Assembly: GCF_022846255.1 (NCBI RefSeq)
Contig: NZ_AP025682.1
Strand: one strand, 5' to 3'
DNA: 64,000 nt
Source of the DNA: Escherichia coli
GTDB taxonomy: Bacteria > Pseudomonadota > Gammaproteobacteria > Enterobacterales > Enterobacteriaceae
The notes beneath the pieces are model-generated. The model worked only from the letters and a program-made list of their open reading frames with translations, searched no databases and was not told where the DNA came from. Position 1 is the stretch's first letter. Each line of letters starts with the position of its first letter. Shown here one piece after another: positions 1-50,204 of the stretch. A program made the translations under genes and the position numbers.

Positions 1-184
1 ACCTCGCACGTTTTGACTCATATTCTGACAACACAGCGACACCTGGGCTAATTCGAAAAACAACGTCCTGCCACCGGATGGTGATGTTAAGGCATCTGAT
101 TCGGCCTGCGCCCTCGCGTAGGCCGAATACAGGATCTGCGCAATCAACGGGTAACAAACAGTTGAGTCAATTCAGTGCGCACTT

Positions 185-1738
185 TTATTTGATATCCTTC
201 ACGCGCATACCGTTGAGCTGTTCATCCGTAATGGTGTTGCCCGCTTTGAAGTAATCAACCACCGCGTGATAAACGTAATAACCGCCCGTTGTGTTACGCG
301 CTTTCCCTTCGGTAAAGGCGGTAAAACCATCTCCACCATCAGCAAGGAAACTCTGAGTAGCAATGTGATAAACCGTCGCATCTTCAATGGGTTTGCCATT
401 CAGAGTCAGTGTGATTACCCGCTGACCAACCGGCTTGCTGCTGTCGTACTTCATTTCCAGGCCTTTCGATACCTGTAAAACGCCATTGCTTAAACTTGCG
501 CCGTGTTCCATCAGACTGCGTAATTGTTTACCCGTGAGTTCCATCGTCACCAGTTCGTTGGGGAACGGGAACGTACTGATAACGCCGCCCATCGTGATCG
601 CCCCTGCGGGGATCTCATTGCGGATACCACCAGAGTTTGTTAACGCCAGTTGGGTATTTTTACCCGCTGCTGCCAGTAAAGCGTCAGCCGCCAGGTTCCC
701 GAGGGAAGCCGATTCACCATAGGCACGTTTTAATTCAACCGGCGATTGCGCCACCGTTTGTTGCACCACTTCATCAAGCTTTTTATTCCAGCCGTCGATC
801 ACCTGTTTCGTTTGCGGATCGGGCTTCCACTCGTCAGCGTAAATGGTTTTAAGCTCGAAGTTTTTCACCGTAAAATTATGCGGCTTCTCTTTGTAGTCGA
901 GAACCAGTTTGCCCACATCAATCCCGCCGCTGTCAGTGGAGAGGATGAGCGTATTGCCGACTTTAATCGGTTCCGGCGTACCCACATGTGCATGTCCGGT
1001 GATCAAAATATCCAGCCCTTTCACCTGACTTGCCGTCTGAATATCTTTATCCAACGCGCGACGCACATCTGTGCCTCCCATACTGGACTGGCGGGCCGGA
1101 ACACCTTCATGGATCAGGGCGACGGTCAAATCAACCTTGCCTTTAAGTTCATCGATATAACGTTGTAGCCATTTAATTTCATCACGCGCCTCAATACCCA
1201 CTCGCGTGGCAGCAGATACTGTGTCATTAAAGGCAAATACACCGTGCAAACCTATAACGCCTATTTTCACACCGTCTTTTTCGATGATGGTATAGGGCTT
1301 ATCCCAGAATGATTTACTGCTGTTCTGATAAAAAACATTGCCCTGCACAATCGGGAATTTTGCCTGACTCAACTGTAATAATGTGTTGTCCCAGCCGTGG
1401 TCAAATTCATGGTTGCCTATCGTGACGGCATCAAACGGCATAGTATTCATAATATCGATAATAGCCTTACCTTTGGTCAGGCTGCTGATATATGGCCCGG
1501 TAAAATAGTCGCCCGCATCAAAAAACCATGTCGCTTTATTTTTTGCTTTTTCTTGCTTAACCAGCGTAGTGATATTTGCCCAGCCGCCAATATCCCGTTT
1601 ACCGTTCGCAATCCACGGCACTTTATAAGGCTCTACATGTGCATGGAGGTCGTTAGTATAAATAATGGTGACATCTTTGGCGCAAGCCCAGAACGGCAAT
1701 GTTAATGCGATACCCGCAGCAAGTATTTTAATTTTCAT
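185..1738 (-). CDS. secreted UshA-family metallophosphoesterase / 5'-nucleotidase, paralog 1 (ORF extends to TTG at 1744; first ATG at 1738)
   Basis: N-terminal signal peptide; calcineurin-like phosphoesterase motifs [35 protein letters not shown]; long C-terminal domain as in 5'-nucleotidases; SD-like AAGGGA upstream of ATG. Confidence 0.8.
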
Positions 1739-1797
1739 AAACAATCCCTTTCAGTGAGATAAAGGATTGCTACATTACGTTCTGAAAGACTTATTTA

Positions 1798-1813
1798 TGT
1801 GAGAGTAATCACA
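1798..1813. promoter_or_regulatory. candidate CRP binding site TGTGAgagtaaTCACA in divergent promoter region
   Basis: both half-sites match consensus TGTGA-N6-TCACA exactly; centred about 65 bp from each flanking start codon. Confidence 0.6.
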
Positions 1814-1870
1814 TCCGCAGGGGATAGTTGCCGGACAAAATCAACGACCTTGTGAAATCGTTGGTGATAT

Positions 1871-2995
1871 ATGTCGACTCTGTTTACGATTAATGCCTGT
1901 AAAACGTTCGGTTGCCGAAATTTGGGATTGGCCTCATCGGAAGATTACAGTTGGCCAGACTATAAACTGGGTTATCCGGCACTGCACTGTCGGGCATGTG
2001 GAAGTTACCCGCCGTTGTTTGACGAACAGCAATTTCGTGACTGGTTGTCAGTTCACTTATCTACTTTTGCAACTGAGAAAGGTCATTTCTGCCCGGTATG
2101 TTATGGCACAGACATGATTTGTTATGGTCACAATCCACAGGGTTCGCAACGCATTCAATGCCGTAACTGCAAAAAAGTCTGGACGCCTAAAAAATATCAG
2201 AAAGAAATTACGCATCCCCAGGCCATTGAAACCGTTCAACTGTTCATACCCTTTCAAGGGGCCAGTGCAGTACAAAAACTGTATGTTTTAGTCAGTCTTG
2301 ACGCCACTCGTGGCAACATTCTTCATCTCTCCACGAATTATACGCAACATCAGACAGGAGACAGTCTGCGGTACAGTTACAAGGGCAACACAGAACCAAC
2401 TATGCACCATCGCGATATCGTGCAGAAGGTAGATATGCGTGAAGCGCAATTCTTGCGCCGGAGCCAGTTCGATGAAATTCAGTATGGCAGTGCTGTACTC
2501 AAGCGCAACGGTAAGGGAGCCATACTACGCCCGGTTATCACGGCACACGGGCATTTCAGAATACTGAAAATCCGCTATCCAGATGTCAAAACGCATATTA
2601 TTTCACACGAATGTTTTCTAAGAGGCGCAATTATTACAGCCTGGGCAGATCAGTTCCGCCAACAACAAGGTGAACTTTGGTTCGTAGAAGAAGAAATCAG
2701 TGACAGTAACGCTGATACGCCCTGGCATTTTAAGGGAACGACATACCATGGTTGGTGGCAAAATCAGTGGCAGCGCTGGGAGCAGGGGAATAACTGCAAG
2801 ATGGTCTGCCTACTCACGGGAGCCTGCTTAGAAAGGGGCGCAAATGTTTCTCTGGCAACCAGTCGTTGTTTTATCACATGGCTGACAGACCAACACGACT
2901 TTACCCAAAGCGCGTTATTATCCGCAGGTCGCGTAACACAAATGCTGACCTCACTGGCGTTAAAATACAATGAATCGCTCACTCCATCTTGTTAG
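1871..2995 (+). CDS. zinc-ribbon protein of unknown function; second Cys cluster resembles IS1 InsA / transposase-type zinc ribbon; possibly transposase-derived
   Basis: 374-aa ORF; C-x4-C...C-x2-C and CPVC-x19-CRNC-x3-W motifs in first 100 aa; no terminal inverted repeats seen around it. Confidence 0.5.
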   Translation: MSTLFTINACKTFGCRNLGLASSEDYSWPDYKLGYPALHCRACGSYPPLFDEQQFRDWLSVHLSTFATEKGHFCPVCYGTDMICYGHNPQGSQRIQCRNCKKVWTPKKYQKEITHPQAIETVQLFIPFQGASAVQKLYVLVSLDATRGNILHLSTNYTQHQTGDSLRYSYKGNTEPTMHHRDIVQKVDMREAQFLRRSQFDEIQYGSAVLKRNGKGAILRPVITAHGHFRILKIRYPDVKTHIISHECFLRGAIITAWADQFRQQQGELWFVEEEISDSNADTPWHFKGTTYHGWWQNQWQRWEQGNNCKMVCLLTGACLERGANVSLATSRCFITWLTDQHDFTQSALLSAGRVTQMLTSLALKYNESLTPSC

Positions 2996-3114
2996 TCAAT
3001 ACACTCGACAAACGACCATAAATTAAGAGAGAGCACTACCTTTCATTTAATTAAATATATAAATGTATGACCGTGAAATATAATCATGGTCAATGTTTAA
3101 TTAATAACATTATT

Positions 3115-3130
3115 TGTTACTAAGATCACA
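3115..3130. promoter_or_regulatory. weak CRP-like site TGTTActaagaTCACA upstream of nucleotidase paralog 2
   Basis: one perfect half-site, one with a G-to-T change; about 100 bp upstream of start codon. Confidence 0.3.
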
Positions 3131-3162
3131 CAATACTTTTCTGAACTATGCTTACATAAAAT

Positions 3163-3179
3163 AAGACACGATGTGTCTT
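3163..3179 (+). terminator. hairpin aagacac-gat-gtgtctt followed by T-rich tract
   Basis: 7-bp stem, 3-nt loop, then tttatttaaa; lies between zinc-ribbon gene and paralog 2. Confidence 0.35.
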
Positions 3180-3224
3180 TTATTTAAATAATTCAACAAA
3201 TGTAACACACCCTATCCAGGAGGG

Positions 3225-4778
3225 ATGATGAAAACTGTATTTACAACATTATCAGTCATATTCGGCGTGATATTTTCTCACAGTGTTCTAGCTCAGGACG
3301 TTACTATTTATTATACGAATGACATTCACGCACATGTCAATCCGGCAAAAATCATCGCTGTTGATAAGAACAGACTTATAGGTGGTATGGCTAATATTGC
3401 AGGCATCGTTAATGAAGCGAAGAAAAAAAGCAAAGATGTGTTTTTCTTTGATGCAGGCGACTATTTTACCGGGCCGTATATCAGCACCCTGACCAAAGGT
3501 GAAGCTATTATTGATATCATGAACACTATGCCCTTTGATGCGGTGTCTGTTGGTAATCACGAGTTCGATCACGGTGTGCCCAATATGGTGTCTCAGTTAT
3601 CAAAAGCAAAATTTCCCATTCTGCTGGGAAATATCTACTACACCGATACGAATAAACCAGTTTGGGATCATCCGTGGACCATTATCGAAAAAGATGGTTT
3701 AAAGATTGGTGTGATTGGATTGCATGGCGCATTCGCTTTCTATGATACAGTCGCGGCAAAAGCACGTGAAGGCGTAGAAGCCAGAGACGAAATTAAATAT
3801 TTAAATAAAGCACTTGCAGAATTAAAAGGTAAAGTCGACATTACCGTTTTGCTAATTCACGAAGGTGTCCCGGCGCGTCAATCAAGCTTTGGTAGTAAAG
3901 ATGTGGAGCGGCTACTACAGGCAGATATTGAGACAGCTAAAAAAGTGAATGGTGTTGATGTCTTAATTACCGGTCACGCACATGTCGGAACACCGCAACC
4001 AATAAAAGTTAATAACACATTAATTGTATCTACCGATGCATACGGCACCAACATCGGAAAACTTGTGCTTGATTACAATCCGAAAACGAAGAAAATTGAT
4101 AGTTATAATGGTGAGTTAATCACCATCTTTGCAGATCAATTTAAACCTGACACCATCGTTCAAAATACTATTGATAAATGGAGTGCAAAGCTTAACAAAA
4201 TAACACAGGAAGTTGTCGGCCATTCTCCCGTAGTTTTAACACGTGAGTATGGTAGTTCCTCTTCTACCGGCAACCTTATTCTTGATGCAATGATGGAAAA
4301 AACACCTGATGCCGTTGCCGGATTTCAAAATAGCGGTGGGATGCGAGCTGATTTTCCTAAAGGCGATATCACACTGGGAGATGTTATTAGCACATTCCCC
4401 TTTAATAATGACCTCATCGAGATGGATTTGACGGGCCGCGATCTCAAATCATTGATGACGCATGCAACCAATCTAACTAACGGTGTGTTACAAGTTTCTA
4501 AAAGTGTTGCGGTTGTCTATGACAGCAAAAAACCACTCAACCAACGGTTAATCTCTTTCACCATTAACGGCAAACCCGTGGAAGATAATCAAACATATCG
4601 TATTGCCACGCACTCCTTTTGTGCCAGTGGTGGTGACGGTTTTGAAGCATTTTTGAATGGAAAAAATGTGAAAACGATACCGGGAACAACCTCGGCGGAA
4701 TCTATCATCGATTATTTCAAAAATCACAAGCCTATCACCCCAGACTTAACTAAACGAGTCATGGACGTCGCCAAATAA
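3225..4778 (+). CDS. secreted UshA-family metallophosphoesterase / 5'-nucleotidase, paralog 2 (start may be second ATG at 3228)
   Basis: signal peptide ending VLA-QDV; motifs [35 protein letters not shown]; AT-rich coding sequence. Confidence 0.8.
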   Translation: MMKTVFTTLSVIFGVIFSHSVLAQDVTIYYTNDIHAHVNPAKIIAVDKNRLIGGMANIAGIVNEAKKKSKDVFFFDAGDYFTGPYISTLTKGEAIIDIMNTMPFDAVSVGNHEFDHGVPNMVSQLSKAKFPILLGNIYYTDTNKPVWDHPWTIIEKDGLKIGVIGLHGAFAFYDTVAAKAREGVEARDEIKYLNKALAELKGKVDITVLLIHEGVPARQSSFGSKDVERLLQADIETAKKVNGVDVLITGHAHVGTPQPIKVNNTLIVSTDAYGTNIGKLVLDYNPKTKKIDSYNGELITIFADQFKPDTIVQNTIDKWSAKLNKITQEVVGHSPVVLTREYGSSSSTGNLILDAMMEKTPDAVAGFQNSGGMRADFPKGDITLGDVISTFPFNNDLIEMDLTGRDLKSLMTHATNLTNGVLQVSKSVAVVYDSKKPLNQRLISFTINGKPVEDNQTYRIATHSFCASGGDGFEAFLNGKNVKTIPGTTSAESIIDYFKNHKPITPDLTKRVMDVAK

Positions 4779-4818
4779 AATCTCATTTATCAGTCAATTT
4801 ATTTAACAAGGAATGTGA

Positions 4819-6438
4819 ATGAAAACAGCGCAGTGTACTTTACTTGCCGCAACATTGCTGACTATTTTTTCGACCTCAGTCATGGCGCAGGATGTCACGA
4901 TTATTTATACCAATGATCTTCACGCTCATGTGGATTCCTATAAAGTACCGTATGTCGCAGACGGAAAACGCGACATTGGTGGCTTTGCCAATATATCCAC
5001 GTTAGTAAAACAAGAGAAAGCCAAAAATAAAGCCACCTTTTATTTTGATGCTGGAGACTATTTCACCGGGCCATATATCAGTAGCCTGACAAAGGGCGAA
5101 GCAATAATTGATATTATGAATACCATGCCTTTTGACGCAGTATCAATCGGTAATCATGAGTTTGACCATGGCTGGGATAATGCCCTCCGACAATTAAGCA
5201 AAGCGAATTTCCCTGTTTTATTAGGCAATGTTTATCATAAAGAGAGTGAGAAACCCTTCTGGAACAAGCCCTACACCATCCTGGAAAAAGATGGCATCAA
5301 GATTGGTATTGTTGGGCTACACGGCGTATTTGCATTTAATGACACGGTCTCGGAGCTCTCTCTCCAGGGACTCGATAATGACAATAATAACCGATTTGAT
5401 AAATCTTCCGCGACCCTCAAGAATCAGGGGATTGAAGCACGTGATGAAGTGAAGTATTTGCAGCATTATATCGATGAGTTACGTGATAAGGTTGACCTCA
5501 CCGTGGCGCTGGTTCATGAAGGCGTACCGGCGCGTCAGTCCAGCATTGGCAATACAGATGTTAGACGTGCGCTGGATAAAGATATTCAAACCGCAAGCAA
5601 GGTGAAAGGATTGGATATTCTGATTACCGGGCATGCCCACGTCGGAACGCCAGAACCAATCAAAGTCGGCAACACCTTAATCCTTTCGACTGACAGTGGC
5701 GGTATCGATATTGGTAAATTAATCCTTGATGTCAACCCTACAGCTCGTACTCATAAAGTGAAGAGCTTTGAGCTGAAAACGGTTTATGCCGATGAATGGA
5801 TACCCGATCCAACCACACAAAAAGTTATCAATGGCTGGAATAAAAAACTGGCGGATCTTGTACGCCAACCAGTCGGTGAATCATCGATTGCATTAACTCG
5901 TGCCTACGGTGAGTCATCGCAACTTGGCAACCTGTTTACCGATGCAATGCTTGTCGCTGCACCGACTGCACAAATTGCGTTGATAAACTCCGGCAGTTTA
6001 CGTGCTGATATAAATGCAGGCACGATTACCTTTGGTGACATTACCAGTACATTCCCCTTCAAGAATGAACTTACTGAAATGGATCTCAGCGGTAAGGATC
6101 TGCGTAACCTACTGGAACACGGGGCATCGCTTACCAATGGCATCCTGCAAATGTCAAAAGGCGCAGAAATGCGCTATACCCTGCAGAAACCAGTAGGTCA
6201 GCGCATTGTATCTTTTAAAATTAATGGTGAAGAGATCGTTGATACGAATATTTACCATGTTGCGACTACGACTTTCCTTGCACTTGGGGGCGATGGTTTT
6301 CTGGCATTCAAAGAAGGGAAAAATGTCCAGGTCCGCGCCGGAAATAACATGTCCAATGTCGTAATCGATTATTTTAAGAAAGGCCACAAGATTACTCCTG
6401 CACAGGTAAATGAAATGCGGGTAGAAGTAAGCAAATAA
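4819..6438 (+). CDS. secreted UshA-family metallophosphoesterase / 5'-nucleotidase, paralog 3 (carries an 18-aa insertion relative to paralogs 1 and 2)
   Basis: signal peptide ending VMA-QDV; same five phosphoesterase motifs; SD AAGGAA upstream; starts 40 bp after paralog 2. Confidence 0.8.
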   Translation: MKTAQCTLLAATLLTIFSTSVMAQDVTIIYTNDLHAHVDSYKVPYVADGKRDIGGFANISTLVKQEKAKNKATFYFDAGDYFTGPYISSLTKGEAIIDIMNTMPFDAVSIGNHEFDHGWDNALRQLSKANFPVLLGNVYHKESEKPFWNKPYTILEKDGIKIGIVGLHGVFAFNDTVSELSLQGLDNDNNNRFDKSSATLKNQGIEARDEVKYLQHYIDELRDKVDLTVALVHEGVPARQSSIGNTDVRRALDKDIQTASKVKGLDILITGHAHVGTPEPIKVGNTLILSTDSGGIDIGKLILDVNPTARTHKVKSFELKTVYADEWIPDPTTQKVINGWNKKLADLVRQPVGESSIALTRAYGESSQLGNLFTDAMLVAAPTAQIALINSGSLRADINAGTITFGDITSTFPFKNELTEMDLSGKDLRNLLEHGASLTNGILQMSKGAEMRYTLQKPVGQRIVSFKINGEEIVDTNIYHVATTTFLALGGDGFLAFKEGKNVQVRAGNNMSNVVIDYFKKGHKITPAQVNEMRVEVSK

Positions 6439-6514
6439 CAAAAACTTATAATACCATTCATTCACTGGATGACATTATTTCTCTCTAAATCAACAATATA
6501 TAAGAGATATATTT

Positions 6515-7375
6515 ATGTATATAAAAAAGCACTGGATAGCTTTATCCATTCTATTAATACCTTGCATTGGAAACGCTCAGGAAATTAAAATTGATGAAAG
6601 CTCGTTACATCAAAGCTTGAATGTCATTGGTCGCACAGACTCTCGCTTTGGCCCAAGACTGACTAACGACCTCTACCCTGAATATACTGTAGCAGGAAGA
6701 AAAGACTGGTTTGATTTTTATGGTTATGTTGATCTACCGAAATTCTTTGGCGTCGGCAGTCACTATGATGTTGGGATCTGGGATGAAGGCTCACCACTAT
6801 TTACGGAAATAGAACCTCGGTTTTCCATTGACAAATTGACCGGATTAAATCTTGCGTTCGGCCCATTTAAAGAATGGTTCATTGCAAACAACTATGTCTA
6901 TGATATGGGTGACAACCAGTCATCCCGGCAAAGTACATGGTATATGGGGCTTGGTACAGATATCGACACGGGTCTACCAATTAAGCTTTCTGCCAATATA
7001 TACGCCAAGTATCAGTGGCAAAACTATGGTGCCGCTAATGAAAATGAATGGGACGGATATCGATTCAAAATAAAATATAGCATCCCTCTTACAAATTTAT
7101 TCGGAGGGCGATTGGTATACAATAGTTTTACTAACTTTGATTTTGGCTCCGATCTTGCGGACAAGTCACACAATAATAAACGAACCAGTAATGCTATTGC
7201 TTCAAGCCATATCCTTTCCCTTCTATATGAACACTGGAAATTTGCATTTACACTACGTTATTTTCACAACGGTGGACAATGGAATGCGGGAGAGAAGGTT
7301 AACTTCGGAGATGGTCCATTTGAATTAAAAAATACAGGATGGGGAACCTATACTACTATTGGTTATCAATTTTAA
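6515..7375 (+). CDS. Tsx-like nucleoside-specific outer-membrane channel (Tsx/OmpK family paralog)
   Basis: 286 aa, signal peptide, C-terminal Phe; blocks such as [37 protein letters not shown] and [26 protein letters not shown] recalled from Tsx. Confidence 0.7.
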
Positions 7376-7472
7376 ATTAGGTGACATTTTAGATATTGTT
7401 ACTTAATGTCATTTTGTAATTGTCATTAATAACTTCACCATTCACTCTGTTACTTCATCGCTCAACACAAAA

Positions 7473-7492
7473 GCCCCCTTATTACCGGGGGC
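7473..7492 (-). terminator. hairpin gccccc-N8-gggggc with T-rich tract on the minus strand
   Basis: inverted repeat followed on minus strand by ttttgtgtt. Confidence 0.35.
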
Positions 7493-7556
7493 ACTGACCA
7501 AAGGCAAAATGACAATCAATCACCACTTCCCCAGGAAGAGGTTTCGGGGTGACAAC

Positions 7557-7583
7557 AAAAGCTGGCAACTGCCAGCTTTTGTT
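7557..7583. terminator. bidirectional intrinsic terminator between Tsx-like gene and metL
   Basis: 8-bp stem agctggca/tgccagct flanked by an A-run and a T-run. Confidence 0.6.
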
Positions 7584-7592
7584 CAATAATCA

Positions 7593-47901: not shown

Positions 47902-49296
47902 TCAGAAGAAGTATTTAAAGCGAACGCGTGCGCCGTAACGGTCATCAGTATCATCACCGTGTTTTTTATCACCGTCGCTATCCAGAATGGAGTAATAAGT
48001 ACCAAGGTAAATATTAAAGTTCTCCATATCCATCACATTAGCGAACTGGTAAGACGCATGAATGGTGTGAATGGTGTACGTCCCTTCATCATCAATCCAG
48101 CAGTCGTTATCACAAACTACACCGCTGAATTCATCAATCTTATTGTGCGCGTAGATATAACCCAGCTCGAAACGTTTCCACAGCGCGTTAATCCCGGCAG
48201 TGAAATCTTTCTCATTATTAGCATCTAAATAGGCGGTATTAAGATTAACCACGACGCCATTTTCCGGATCCGTTTTCAGGCCATTCCAGGTCATGCTCAT
48301 ACCATAGCCGGTACGATCGGACTGATCGACAAAATTACCCTTGCTATCGGTATAACCATAAGCATTATTTACCATATTCGCTTCCATCGCTGCGGAAACG
48401 GTGAATTCTTCCGTCGGCGACCAGGCAATTACCGGACGCAGATAAGCAACATTTTTCTGCTGTTCCATATCGCGTCCATGATAATTACCGTCGTTATATA
48501 AAGATGTTCCATCTTCCAGTAACGTGTTTAATTCAAAATACCAGTTATCGAGTTGTTTGCTGACGAGGAAATTACCGCCAGCGTTAGAACGTCCGCGGCC
48601 CTCTTTCATCATATAGATATAACCGCTGCCATCGTCATAAAGATCGTTCGCAGTATTACCGGAATGTTCAACAAAGGTATCCTGACTCAGCGGGAACATA
48701 TCGTAGGCTTCAAAACGGCCTACTTTGACCTTCCAGTCGTTTTCTTTGCCAAAGAAGAAAACCGCATCATCGATATTTACTGAACCGTGCATATCCCCCA
48801 GCGGTTGTACGGAGAACCCAGCGAAATAGCCATTATCCAGTTTTCGCATACCATCAAAACCTAACAGAATACGACCATTGAGATTCCACTGTTCATTAGT
48901 GGGATCGCTATTCACATCAGCGTTGGTCATTGCCAGCAGGCCATGATTACTTTCCGCATCCATATTAAATTCTACGTCACCGTAGATTTTTAAATCGCCA
49001 TACCCTGAAAGCAGGAGATTAGGCGGGGTGGCGTTTTTCTTCTCTGACTCCGTCGTTGATTGACCGTTTACCGGCGTGTTGCCCTGTGCGATCTTAATTT
49101 CGCGGATCTCGGCGGCTTGTTGTGTCTGAAGCTGTTTAACCTGCCCCTCTGCTTTTGCTGCCCGCATTTCTGCCGCTTCCAGGCGTTCTTCCAGCAATGC
49201 CATGCGTTGTTCCAGCGTTAAATGCTGTGTTTTTGCCATACCGGTACTACATGCCAATAATAAACCGATGGCTAAAGATAATGTCGATTTTTTCAT
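47902..49296 (-). CDS. outer-membrane porin, probably substrate-specific (carbohydrate-porin-like), with N-terminal coiled-coil extension
   Basis: 464 aa; signal peptide; coiled-coil LEQRMALLEERLEAAEMRAAKAEGQVKQLQ; C-terminal FKYFF; 353-bp AT-rich upstream region. Confidence 0.5.
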   Translation of the reverse strand: MKKSTLSLAIGLLLACSTGMAKTQHLTLEQRMALLEERLEAAEMRAAKAEGQVKQLQTQQAAEIREIKIAQGNTPVNGQSTTESEKKNATPPNLLLSGYGDLKIYGDVEFNMDAESNHGLLAMTNADVNSDPTNEQWNLNGRILLGFDGMRKLDNGYFAGFSVQPLGDMHGSVNIDDAVFFFGKENDWKVKVGRFEAYDMFPLSQDTFVEHSGNTANDLYDDGSGYIYMMKEGRGRSNAGGNFLVSKQLDNWYFELNTLLEDGTSLYNDGNYHGRDMEQQKNVAYLRPVIAWSPTEEFTVSAAMEANMVNNAYGYTDSKGNFVDQSDRTGYGMSMTWNGLKTDPENGVVVNLNTAYLDANNEKDFTAGINALWKRFELGYIYAHNKIDEFSGVVCDNDCWIDDEGTYTIHTIHASYQFANVMDMENFNIYLGTYYSILDSDGDKKHGDDTDDRYGARVRFKYFF

Positions 49297-49649
49297 TATT
49301 TACGTTCCCTGAAATAAAGGAGACCCTACGCTTTCCAAAAGGAATACGTATATAGAGAAATATAAGGTGTGCACTTTCGAATTTTTAATCCAACTTCAGC
49401 AGGCCGATGGATAGTATCCCGCTGCATAATATGAGTAAATCCGCTGATTTCCTGGAACGTGAGGAATATAACAATAGTGCCGTTTTTAACTAAATATCGT
49501 AAAAAATATTAGATATAATTCACGCTGACTCATAAGCCACAAATATAAATAACGCTTAAACAAATTATCTGAGACATTTTAACATTCACAAAATCATTAA
49601 ATAATGATACTTTATTCACAAAATTTATCCTTCACTCTGCTTTATATTG

Positions 49650-50204
49650 TTACGACTTCGTGACATATCCGTGCTCATCACAAACCCGCCCCGCGATTAC
49701 AATTAACTGAAATATTTCATCGACCATTTCGTTGTAATCGCATAACGCTCGTGGAAATGAGTCTTCGGCCATCCAGCTTGAGTTTGCGTCCTGAAGTTGC
49801 TCTTTATCCCAGTCAGAGTACGGGACTTTATCTCTGATGCGGCGAACGTATTTTTTAGCCTCGAGTTGATACTGGCCTGCCGAATTAATAAACGAGAAAC
49901 TCATGCCGCTTTTATCCGCTTCTTTGGCTTGCGCCACCAGCGTTTCCAGTTCAGACACTTTCTTCATTGCCGCTTCTGCATCTAACTTATCTTGCGATAT
50001 CAGGTTATTAATTTGTTTCGCTGAAATCATGACTGCCAGAGAGTAGTAGTGGAATGTTTTCCCTTTCGCAAACGCATCGTCTTTATAATTTTCCTGGGTG
50101 TAATATTTATCCATTTCGTTAATGGTATTACCCAACGCTACGGCAGCATCAATATAACTCACCGCCACGCCATCAATAGGTTGCAGCGCAGGCGTTAACG
50201 CCAC
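49650..50204 (-). CDS. hypothetical protein, possibly a gene remnant (GTG start, no SD, no signal peptide)
   Basis: 184-aa ORF starting 88 bp downstream of fdhD; sits where K-12 has yiiG. Confidence 0.3.
   Translation of the reverse strand: MALTPALQPIDGVAVSYIDAAVALGNTINEMDKYYTQENYKDDAFAKGKTFHYYSLAVMISAKQINNLISQDKLDAEAAMKKVSELETLVAQAKEADKSGMSFSFINSAGQYQLEAKKYVRRIRDKVPYSDWDKEQLQDANSSWMAEDSFPRALCDYNEMVDEIFQLIVIAGRVCDEHGYVTKS

Follow-up and report, generated by a model that had tools for sequence, protein, structure and literature searches.

Two probable evolutionary layers behind a compositional break at the metF–metL locus of phylogroup B2 Escherichia coli

Why should the base composition of a small gene cluster break in the middle? 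The 64,000-nucleotide stretch of Escherichia coli DNA analysed here (contig NZ_AP025682.1, assembly GCF_022846255.1; hereafter the window) carries, between metF and metL, three 5'-nucleotidase paralogs (nt1, nt2 and nt3), a gene for a zinc-ribbon protein (zn) and a tsx-like channel gene, and the last three of the five genes in order are visibly more AT-rich than the first two. We put the probability at roughly three in four that the break parts two evolutionary layers at a variable spot: an old nt1–zn pair and an old AT-rich accessory block. Layer 1 (positions 1-2965) would be the divergent nt1/zn pair, in a position common in Enterobacteriaceae, mostly lost in E. coli and mildly below core composition. 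Layer 2 (about 2966-7598) would comprise nt2, nt3 and the Tsx-like channel gene with their own AT-rich promoter region and terminators, filling the interval from the end of zn to the metL stop. This second layer is probably old as well, as Citrobacter enshiensis has it at the same site and Citrobacter farmeri keeps a partly eroded version there.

The first 12 kb of the window are 99.2-99.3% identical to phylogroup B2 E. coli CFT073, Nissle 1917, LF82 and UTI89 (CFT073, 99.2%). The best match of the window strain among complete RefSeq genomes is 99.3%, and none of these genomes is identical. The CFT073 annotation gives the gene order katG, metF, nucleotidase, hypothetical protein, nucleotidase, nucleotidase, Tsx, metL, metB, and the region was placed between metF and metL. 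The five genes occupy 4,652,055-4,659,245 of the CFT073 sequence NC_004431.1 (C_RS23130 to C_RS23150). The features of the region in the window are the following.

1-184: left end of the variable region, which starts about 46 nt before the window start and 150 nt upstream of metF; 100% identical to sequence type 131 (ST131)
185-1738, minus strand: nt1, periplasmic metallophosphatase/5'-nucleotidase (Pfam Metallophos and 5_nucleotid_C)
1739-1870: divergent control region of nt1 and zn, 132 nt, marked by cross-genus DNA conservation
1871-2995, plus strand: zn, a 374-residue 'cytoplasmic protein', recombinant allele
2966-2970, plus strand: left copy of TACAA, codons Tyr366-Asn367 of zn and left edge of a 4,628-bp indel (ST131, Escherichia whittamii and Pseudocitrobacter junctions compared)
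2971-3224: zn tail ESLTPSC (stop at 2995), then a very AT-rich intergenic region
3225-4778, plus strand: nt2, second 5'-nucleotidase paralog (Pfam domains)
4819-6438, plus strand: nt3, third 5'-nucleotidase paralog, closest to nt1
6515-7375, plus strand: tsx-like outer-membrane nucleoside channel gene (Pfam and NCBIfam models)
7376-7593: right-hand spacer with a hairpin (7473-7492) and a terminator-like palindrome (7554-7583)
7594-7598, plus strand: right-hand TACAA, which overlaps the stop-codon region of metL and bounds the indel on that side
7593-10025, minus strand: metL, core gene and right flank

The break itself was examined by base composition and codon usage. A first-pass annotation, made by eye, had described the DNA from 3.0 to 7.4 kb, including the intergenic region 2996-3224, as AT-rich. 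Measurement bears this out and makes the segment slightly wider, about 2966-7598, or 4.6 kb at 40.6% GC in a host genome of 51% GC. The left block (185-2995) has a GC content of 0.471 and the right block (3225-7375) one of 0.413 (chi-square p=2.2e-6), and the pooled GC content at third codon positions (GC3) is 0.494 versus 0.395 (p=4.5e-6), so that the difference proposed between the two blocks is significant on both measures. By feature, the GC values are 0.478 for nt1, 0.469 for zn, 0.288 for intergenic 2996-3224, 0.408 for nt2 (GC3 0.378), 0.442 for nt3, 0.237 for intergenic 6439-6514 and 0.393 for the tsx-like gene, with 0.578 for metL and 0.518 for the rest of the window. When positions 1-14000 were segmented by GC content under maximum likelihood, the segments were 1-2959 (0.475), 2960-3205 (0.268), 3206-7601 (0.414) and 7602-9766 (0.589); the split threshold was never reached in shuffled sequence. 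The lowest-GC 4.6-kb stretch within the whole 64 kb begins at about 2851.

The 46 core open reading frames (ORFs) of the window served as the reference (GC 0.527±0.028, GC3 0.577±0.050, pooled GC3 0.586). Relative to their GC content, nt1 lies 1.7 and zn 2.1 standard deviations (sd) below, and the right-block genes lie 3 to 4.8 sd below. The codon-usage distance B to this core is 0.208 for nt1, which is very core-like, 0.346 for nt3, 0.381 for zn, 0.415 for nt2 and 0.541 for the tsx-like gene, the most atypical of the five; the core genes themselves give 0.321±0.086. The codon adaptation index did not separate the two halves among the window genes. Its weights follow Sharp and Li (1987), and codon bias relative to the window's own core genes is trusted more.

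The two blocks are also separable in natural populations. Presence was counted over 5426 complete E. coli genomes: the left block occurs in 1838 and the right block in 658, and therefore about 1180 genomes, including ST131, hold nt1 and zn alone, while all five genes are found in 658 and neither block in about 3580. In strain JJ2434 of ST131, zn continues directly into the 3' end of metL. By blastn, ST131 matches window positions 1-2958 and then 7594-12000, and inspection of the junction moved the first end point from 2958 to 2966-2970. The ST131 sequence is equivalent to the window minus 4,628 bp between the TACAA copies at 2966 and 7594, and this indel begins and ends 6-8 nt away from the points at which the composition breaks. 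None of the five genes is present in K-12; its homology with CFT073 ends 150 nt upstream of the metF start and restarts exactly at the metL stop, and between these points K-12 has 199 bp that include a REP-like element (repetitive extragenic palindrome).

The end of zn bears on the direction of the change. The tail of zn in the window (YN-ESLTPSC) matches the family pattern YNxxLT, and its DNA is homologous to that of the C. farmeri and C. enshiensis tails, whereas the tail in the short form found in Escherichia and Pseudocitrobacter (YN-NCASRLISD) is antisense metL. The short form therefore bears a deletion scar at the TACAA microhomology. In such a deletion, the TACAA of zn would have been fused with its exact copy at the metL stop, leaving zn to read into antisense metL. 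The states with and without the block would have been swapped within E. coli by homologous recombination, with the crossover of the window lineage falling inside zn. A 5-bp target-site duplication was also considered for TACAA and rejected: the left copy consists of the invariant Tyr-Asn codons of zn, and the one on the right belongs to the stop region of metL.

Two of the classical marks of a genomic island, deviant composition and variable presence, are observed here; the others, including recent arrival, are not. No tRNA gene lies in positions 1-13000, no integrase is encoded among the five genes, no terminal inverted repeats were found at the edges of the AT-rich block, and no att-type flanking direct repeats were found, the 5-nt TACAA microhomology alone being present. 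The locus is an ordinary mosaic islet, an already annotated accessory region at a recombination hot spot. A fourth state was seen in E. coli 2018-05-2CC (locus L004, 2498-5705), which has a phosphotransferase system (PTS) EIIC gene and a malI-like regulator gene beside metF; remnants of nt1 (495 nt) and zn (201 nt) come next.

The age of the left layer was assessed by scanning one genome per species, with genes placed by tblastn. Homologs of zn, annotated 'cytoplasmic protein', occur throughout Enterobacteriaceae, and the synteny metF–nt1(-)–zn(+)–metL is kept in more than 15 species. These include several Citrobacter species, Klebsiella pneumoniae, K. oxytoca, K. spallanzanii, Kosakonia, Phytobacter, Superficieibacter, Kluyvera, Salmonella enterica subsp. 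arizonae, Pseudocitrobacter and Escherichia whittamii. At this slot, the amino acid identity of nt1 across genera is 87-98%, compared with 90-95% for MetL. The GC3 of nt1 and zn in Citrobacter, Klebsiella, Salmonella and Kluyvera is 0.54-0.64, which is host-like. Because the pair is fixed between metF and metL in many genera, the left part is not a recent acquisition; it appears instead to have been lost from most E. coli.

The right layer has a narrower distribution. The tsx-like gene has one close relative outside E. coli, in C. enshiensis (85%), and the next best match is at most 69%. C. enshiensis has, at the same site, katG, metF, nt1, zn, nt2, nt3, tsx, one extra membrane ORF and metL, and its nt2 and nt3 products are 92% and 87% identical in amino acids to those of the window; nt3 is also 88% identical to orthologs at a second locus described below. 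The compositional contrast recurs there: nt1 (0.516) and zn (0.536) have host-like GC, and nt2, nt3 and tsx have 0.386, 0.457 and 0.389. In C. farmeri, zn is followed by a spacer that is also AT-rich (0.295), by nt2 (0.400) and by the initial 225 nt of nt3, and a GC-rich lysR-CMD pair takes the place of the remaining block. Divergence at fourfold-degenerate sites (K4) between E. coli and C. enshiensis is 0.68 for nt2, 0.78 for nt3 and 0.99 for tsx, and 0.58-0.87 for the core genes metB, metL, metF and katG. The divergence of the block thus resembles that of its flanking core genes although the block is still AT-rich, which identifies it as an old block that has not ameliorated. Its AT-richness is kept in every host examined.

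These distributions bear directly on the idea that the cluster is a mosaic of two acquisitions, with nt1 and zn coming from a donor of about 47% GC and nt2, nt3 and tsx arriving later from a donor of about 40% GC. Two compositional classes coincide with two presence/absence classes, both blocks fall below core GC3, and nt1 and zn of Escherichia have lower GC3 (0.51 and 0.41-0.47) than their Citrobacter and Klebsiella orthologs and group with copies from outside the metL locus, all of which such a history would explain. However, nt1 and zn occupy the same metF–metL slot in many genera with identities like those of MetL and MetF, the AT-rich block occupies that slot in two Citrobacter species with core-like synonymous divergence, and the tRNA gene, integrase and terminal inverted repeats sought in the intervals given above are missing. 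The same slot being used in other genera, neither block looks like a recent entry into E. coli, and two independent acquisitions are unlikely. Of the mosaic that the first-pass annotation proposed, the two strata survive, physically separable in the genomes that keep the left block alone; the acquisition of nt1 and zn does not, given their conserved synteny.

A different objection is that the break has no historical content. Gene-specific constraints (beta-barrel amino acid composition, low expression, selection for silencing by the nucleoid protein H-NS) might shape the GC content of a single unit whose genes were always joined. In Enterobacter asburiae, Citrobacter sp. wls619 and cryptic Escherichia, other sites hold clusters in which nt1–nt2–tsx–nt3 run divergently from zn. 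The five families recur together at no fewer than three chromosomal sites. The GC ranking nt1 ≥ nt3 > nt2 ~ tsx recurs in the orthologs of these rearranged clusters, and AT-richness has persisted over a K4 of about 0.7-1.0, as constraint would predict. Against this, GC3 and fourfold-site GC at conserved residues differ too, and amino acid content is therefore not the cause. The blocks are physically separable in natural genomes, and the step in C. enshiensis is abrupt, sharper than in the window (GC3 of 0.57-0.60 versus 0.31-0.46). We regard an explanation by constraint as doubtful, and we retain the two-layer reading.

The second cluster shows further variation. In the cryptic-clade strain Escherichia SCPM-O-B-8794 (locus L015, 1100-11242), it lies between chaA and kdsA, where it takes the place of the ldr toxin repeat region, and it is made up of a radical-SAM-like ORF, nt3, tsx, nt2 in two copies and nt1, with zn running divergently. 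It was also found at loci L014, L034 and L037, and some genomes have both the second cluster and the metL-locus pair. The complete E. coli genomes of the collection lack this second cluster.

Several minor features mark the noncoding DNA of the AT-rich block. A hairpin lies in the intergenic region at 3163-3179. At 7554-7583, 11 nt downstream of the metL stop, there is a perfect 14+14-nt palindrome, AACAAAAGCTGGCA-ac-TGCCAGCTTTTGTT, which looks like a bidirectional intrinsic terminator for metL and the tsx-like gene. The palindrome belongs to the block and is absent from ST131 and K-12; no counterpart of the right-hand spacer as a whole (7376-7593) was found in ST131, K-12 or C. enshiensis.

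The three nucleotidases offer an independent view of the history of the cluster. All three score 127-137 bits with 5_nucleotid_C (cut-off 23.6) and 43-49 bits with Metallophos (cut-off 21.5), and in the alignment all three keep NDxHAH, DAGD, GNHEFD and GHAH, the metal-binding and catalytic motifs established for the family. With the UshA equivalog model NF007109 they reach 153-167 bits versus a cut-off of 600, and they also fall far below the NadN and CpdB cut-offs. They are therefore not UshA orthologs, and by these scores they form a subfamily apart from UshA, NadN and CpdB. Signal peptides are found in all three and in the tsx-like protein, which scores 234 bits with Pfam Channel_Tsx (cut-off 27.2) and 488 bits with NCBIfam PRK15106 (cut-off 311). 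The tsx-like gene is a paralog, because the canonical tsx sits elsewhere (c0521 in CFT073).

As the first-pass annotation noted, nt1 and nt3 are the closest pair, with 67% amino acid identity; each is 56% identical to nt2. This proximity, together with the high GC content and core-like codon usage of nt1, suggested a duplication inside the island after which the older copy, nt1, ameliorated toward the host. The evidence goes the other way. In the paralog trees, nt1, nt2 and nt3 form three clades, each with 200/200 support and each containing several genera, and K4 values between the paralogs of the window have reached saturation (from 1.75 to undefined). Amelioration after a recent duplication within E. 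coli is therefore rejected. The orthologs repeat the GC ranking seen in the window, and nt2 and tsx are AT-rich in every host with no upward drift. High-identity tracts between the paralogs are confined to the catalytic-motif region, and we consider a duplication within the island extremely improbable. Gene conversion between the paralogs was likewise rejected: the maximum identity over 90 nt is 0.83-0.90 and occurs only at the catalytic-motif stretch common to all three.

One structural difference among the paralogs may be mentioned here. A 21-residue Asn/Asp-rich insertion, LSLQGLDNDNNNRFDKSSATLKN (window 5351-5413, codons ~179-199), is present in nt3, and nt1 and nt2 are without it. The second-locus nt3 of the cryptic Escherichia described above has a near-identical insertion, LSIQGLDNDNNNRFDKSAASLKN, and the nt3 ortholog of C. 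enshiensis has the same length of 539 residues.

Some observations weigh against a clean division into two layers. The pooled GC3 of the left block is below that of the core (p=7.6e-8), so the left part is not truly core-like; the core-like composition first ascribed to nt1 and zn holds for the codon usage of nt1 and fails for the GC3 of the left block. The GC content grades from nt1 through zn, nt3 and nt2 down to tsx and does not form two flat plateaus. At matched codons, where the three paralogs agree in the encoded residue, GC3 is 0.50 in nt1, 0.44 in nt3 and 0.36 in nt2, and the difference is significant for nt1 versus nt2 only, nt3 versus nt1 being not significant. The paralog trees were built by neighbour joining only, with 200 bootstraps. 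In these trees, Escherichia nt1 does not cluster with the metL-locus copies of Citrobacter and Klebsiella and groups instead (163/200), together with that of Pseudocitrobacter, with non-metL-locus copies of Enterobacter, Citrobacter sp. wls619 and cryptic Escherichia. The K4 values between E. coli and C. enshiensis are 1.14 for nt1 and 1.16 for zn, above those of the core genes. In Escherichia and Pseudocitrobacter, GC3 is also lower than in the other genera (nt1 0.51, zn 0.40-0.47). Because of the grouping of nt1 and the elevated K4 of both genes, layer 1 of Escherichia may itself have been replaced by a lower-GC variant and would then not be strictly vertical. The polarity of the indel could also be the reverse of that proposed, with the block a single insertion into a short zn–metL spacer and the overlapping form produced by a separate small deletion.

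The zn gene carries a record of exchange between the two states. Between CFT073 and ST131, nt1 is 97-100% identical, and the identity of zn, taken per 250 nt toward the indel, is 93%, 88%, 73%, 78% and 70%; the window shows the same ramp. Residues 1-125 of zn in the window are nearest to the ST131 type (88%), residues 126-310 to N96 (94%) and Pseudocitrobacter cyperus (91%), and residues 311-362 to N96 alone (94%), with all others at or below 62%. These segment-wise affinities mark the five-gene haplotype of B2 as recombinant. Its left crossover falls within zn, and the composition break follows about 700-900 nt further right. Strain N96 has a five-gene haplotype that is 95% identical over its whole length.

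The zn protein has two four-cysteine zinc ribbons at its N-terminus and belongs to a small family, with 123 clusters at 50% identity among 1.8 billion proteins. An AlphaFold model built from an alignment of 53 diverse sequences has a predicted local distance difference test score (pLDDT) of 93.4; an earlier model from 15 close homologs (pLDDT 37) was discarded. In the retained model, the predicted core has an RNase H-like fold of the DDE-transposase type. Residues R197, H228, H246 and E/D247 are nearly invariant. An acidic residue occupies position 144 in 40 of the 53 sequences (75%) and position 247 in all 53, and there is no canonical second Asp after strand 4. No transposase model of Pfam or NCBIfam exceeds its threshold for zn, and the matches to zinc ribbons of the IS1/IS1595 type fall below the cut-offs (16.5 versus 26.1 bits and 23.2 versus 28). 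A sequence search of the PDB with a zn profile returned nothing meaningful, and Foldseek against the PDB gave weak RNase H-like matches only (Argonaute PIWI, EndoV), with E values of 1e-3 or worse.

DDE transposases with N-terminal zinc ribbons (IS1, IS1595 and IS256/Mutator, for example ISCth4) differ from zn, which is without an intact D-D-E triad and without terminal inverted repeats and holds a fixed syntenic position across genera. Neither terminal inverted repeats nor a target-site duplication was found at the window locus or at the chaA–kdsA locus of cryptic Escherichia. On the modelled fold, zn looks like a domesticated or non-mobile relative of transposases. A bolder and quite tentative proposal, which we think improbable as a whole, is that zn arose by domestication of a transposase, with IS1-like zinc ribbons joined to an RNase H/DDE-type core whose active site has changed, and that it is tied across Enterobacteriaceae to the nucleotidases and their dedicated Tsx-like channel through the conserved divergent promoter and its CRP site. 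It might act as their DNA-binding regulator, or it might move or rearrange nucleotidase cassettes between sites (metF–metL, chaA–kdsA and others), and the AT-richness of the block would then reflect silencing and counter-silencing in regulation.

The sequences that could control the cluster are well conserved. The nt1/zn intergenic region (1739-1870) has a fixed length and is 70-82% identical over ~130 nt across genera, which makes it better conserved than the zn coding sequence. It contains a perfect CRP-type site, TGTGAgagtaaTCACA, at 1798-1813, with half-sites invariant in 13/13 sequences; we take this putative site to be one for CRP from the known consensus. The region also contains two inverted repeats: the conserved CAACGA-N10-TCGTTG (1842-1863), directly ahead of the zn start, and CTTTCAG...CTGAAAG, at 1748 and 1782. 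An Rfam scan of 1-8000 at E≤1 returned no matches, and the conserved region is therefore not a known RNA family. Upstream of nt2, in the AT-rich layer, a CRP-like site, TGTTActaagaTCACA, is found at 3115-3130, within a 44-nt element (3090-3133) that is 91% identical in C. enshiensis.

Taken together, the five genes are most likely a CRP-controlled nucleotide scavenging system, as predicted from their sequences. Nucleotides would be dephosphorylated in the periplasm by the nucleotidases, and nucleosides would cross the outer membrane through the Tsx-like channel. The cluster resembles UshA, NadN and CpdB and the CytR/CRP nucleoside regulon with Tsx in its Metallophos and 5_nucleotid_C domains, signal peptides and metal motifs, in the Tsx-family channel alongside, and in the CRP-type sites upstream. 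It differs in the low equivalog scores of its nucleotidases, and its regulation by CytR or CRP is a prediction from sequence.

The first-pass annotation also named the AT-rich parts as likely targets of H-NS, and this is plausible as a prediction for the block. The motif of the proU type occurs 14 times in the block versus 6.2 expected (2.3-fold, p=0.0045), an enrichment that is due to the AT content. The composition itself is of the H-NS type, with an AT-rich tract longer than 1 kb (0.406 over 4.6 kb) and intergenic regions at 0.24-0.29. Xenogeneic silencing of AT-rich DNA by H-NS has been described (Navarre 2006 and Oshima 2006, as cited in PMC9765446), and chromatin immunoprecipitation sequencing (ChIP-seq) of H-NS in CFT073 found ~33% of lineage-specific genes bound (PMC9765446). 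The block is like H-NS-silenced accessory DNA in being a lineage-variable 4.6-kb segment at 40.6% GC with intergenic regions of 24-29% GC. Unlike silenced foreign DNA, it is no recent arrival, as its core-like divergence between E. coli and Citrobacter indicates, and its link to H-NS is a prediction from composition.

The same locus appears in PMC12928451 (2026) as 'GR 31 (metL..metF)' of the B2 extraintestinal and avian pathogenic E. coli (ExPEC/APEC) strains BEN2908, CFT073, UTI89 and LF82. The genes are the same, three nucleotidases with UshA domains and a Tsx homolog, and coordinated nucleoside processing and uptake was proposed for them; in two passages of the paper, however, the region is treated as one block common to B2 model strains. 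Relative to those passages, the two-layer structure, the ST131-type short form, the cross-genus synteny and the transposase fold of the hypothetical gene are new here. What passes for a 'strain-specific island' of uropathogenic E. coli would be an ancient enterobacterial pair lost by K-12 plus an old AT-rich add-on, which accounts for the difference between ST131 and CFT073, both of phylogroup B2, at metF–metL. The case is a caution that GC content is a poor guide to the age or origin of DNA. It also draws attention to a compact set of proteins, comprising three nucleotidases, a second Tsx and a partner with a transposase fold, as a candidate nucleotide-scavenging system that is enriched in extraintestinal pathogenic lineages. 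None of these results overturns current understanding.

Two smaller observations concern the window at large. It differs from CFT073 at 91 positions in 12 kb, and the differences are clustered, with 32 in nt1/zn (1001-2500) and 19 in a 500-nt patch of metL (8001-8500), which suggests small patches of recombination. The second most AT-rich stretch of the window consists of two further low-GC ORFs at 47902-50114 (0.437-0.449), comparable to nt3.

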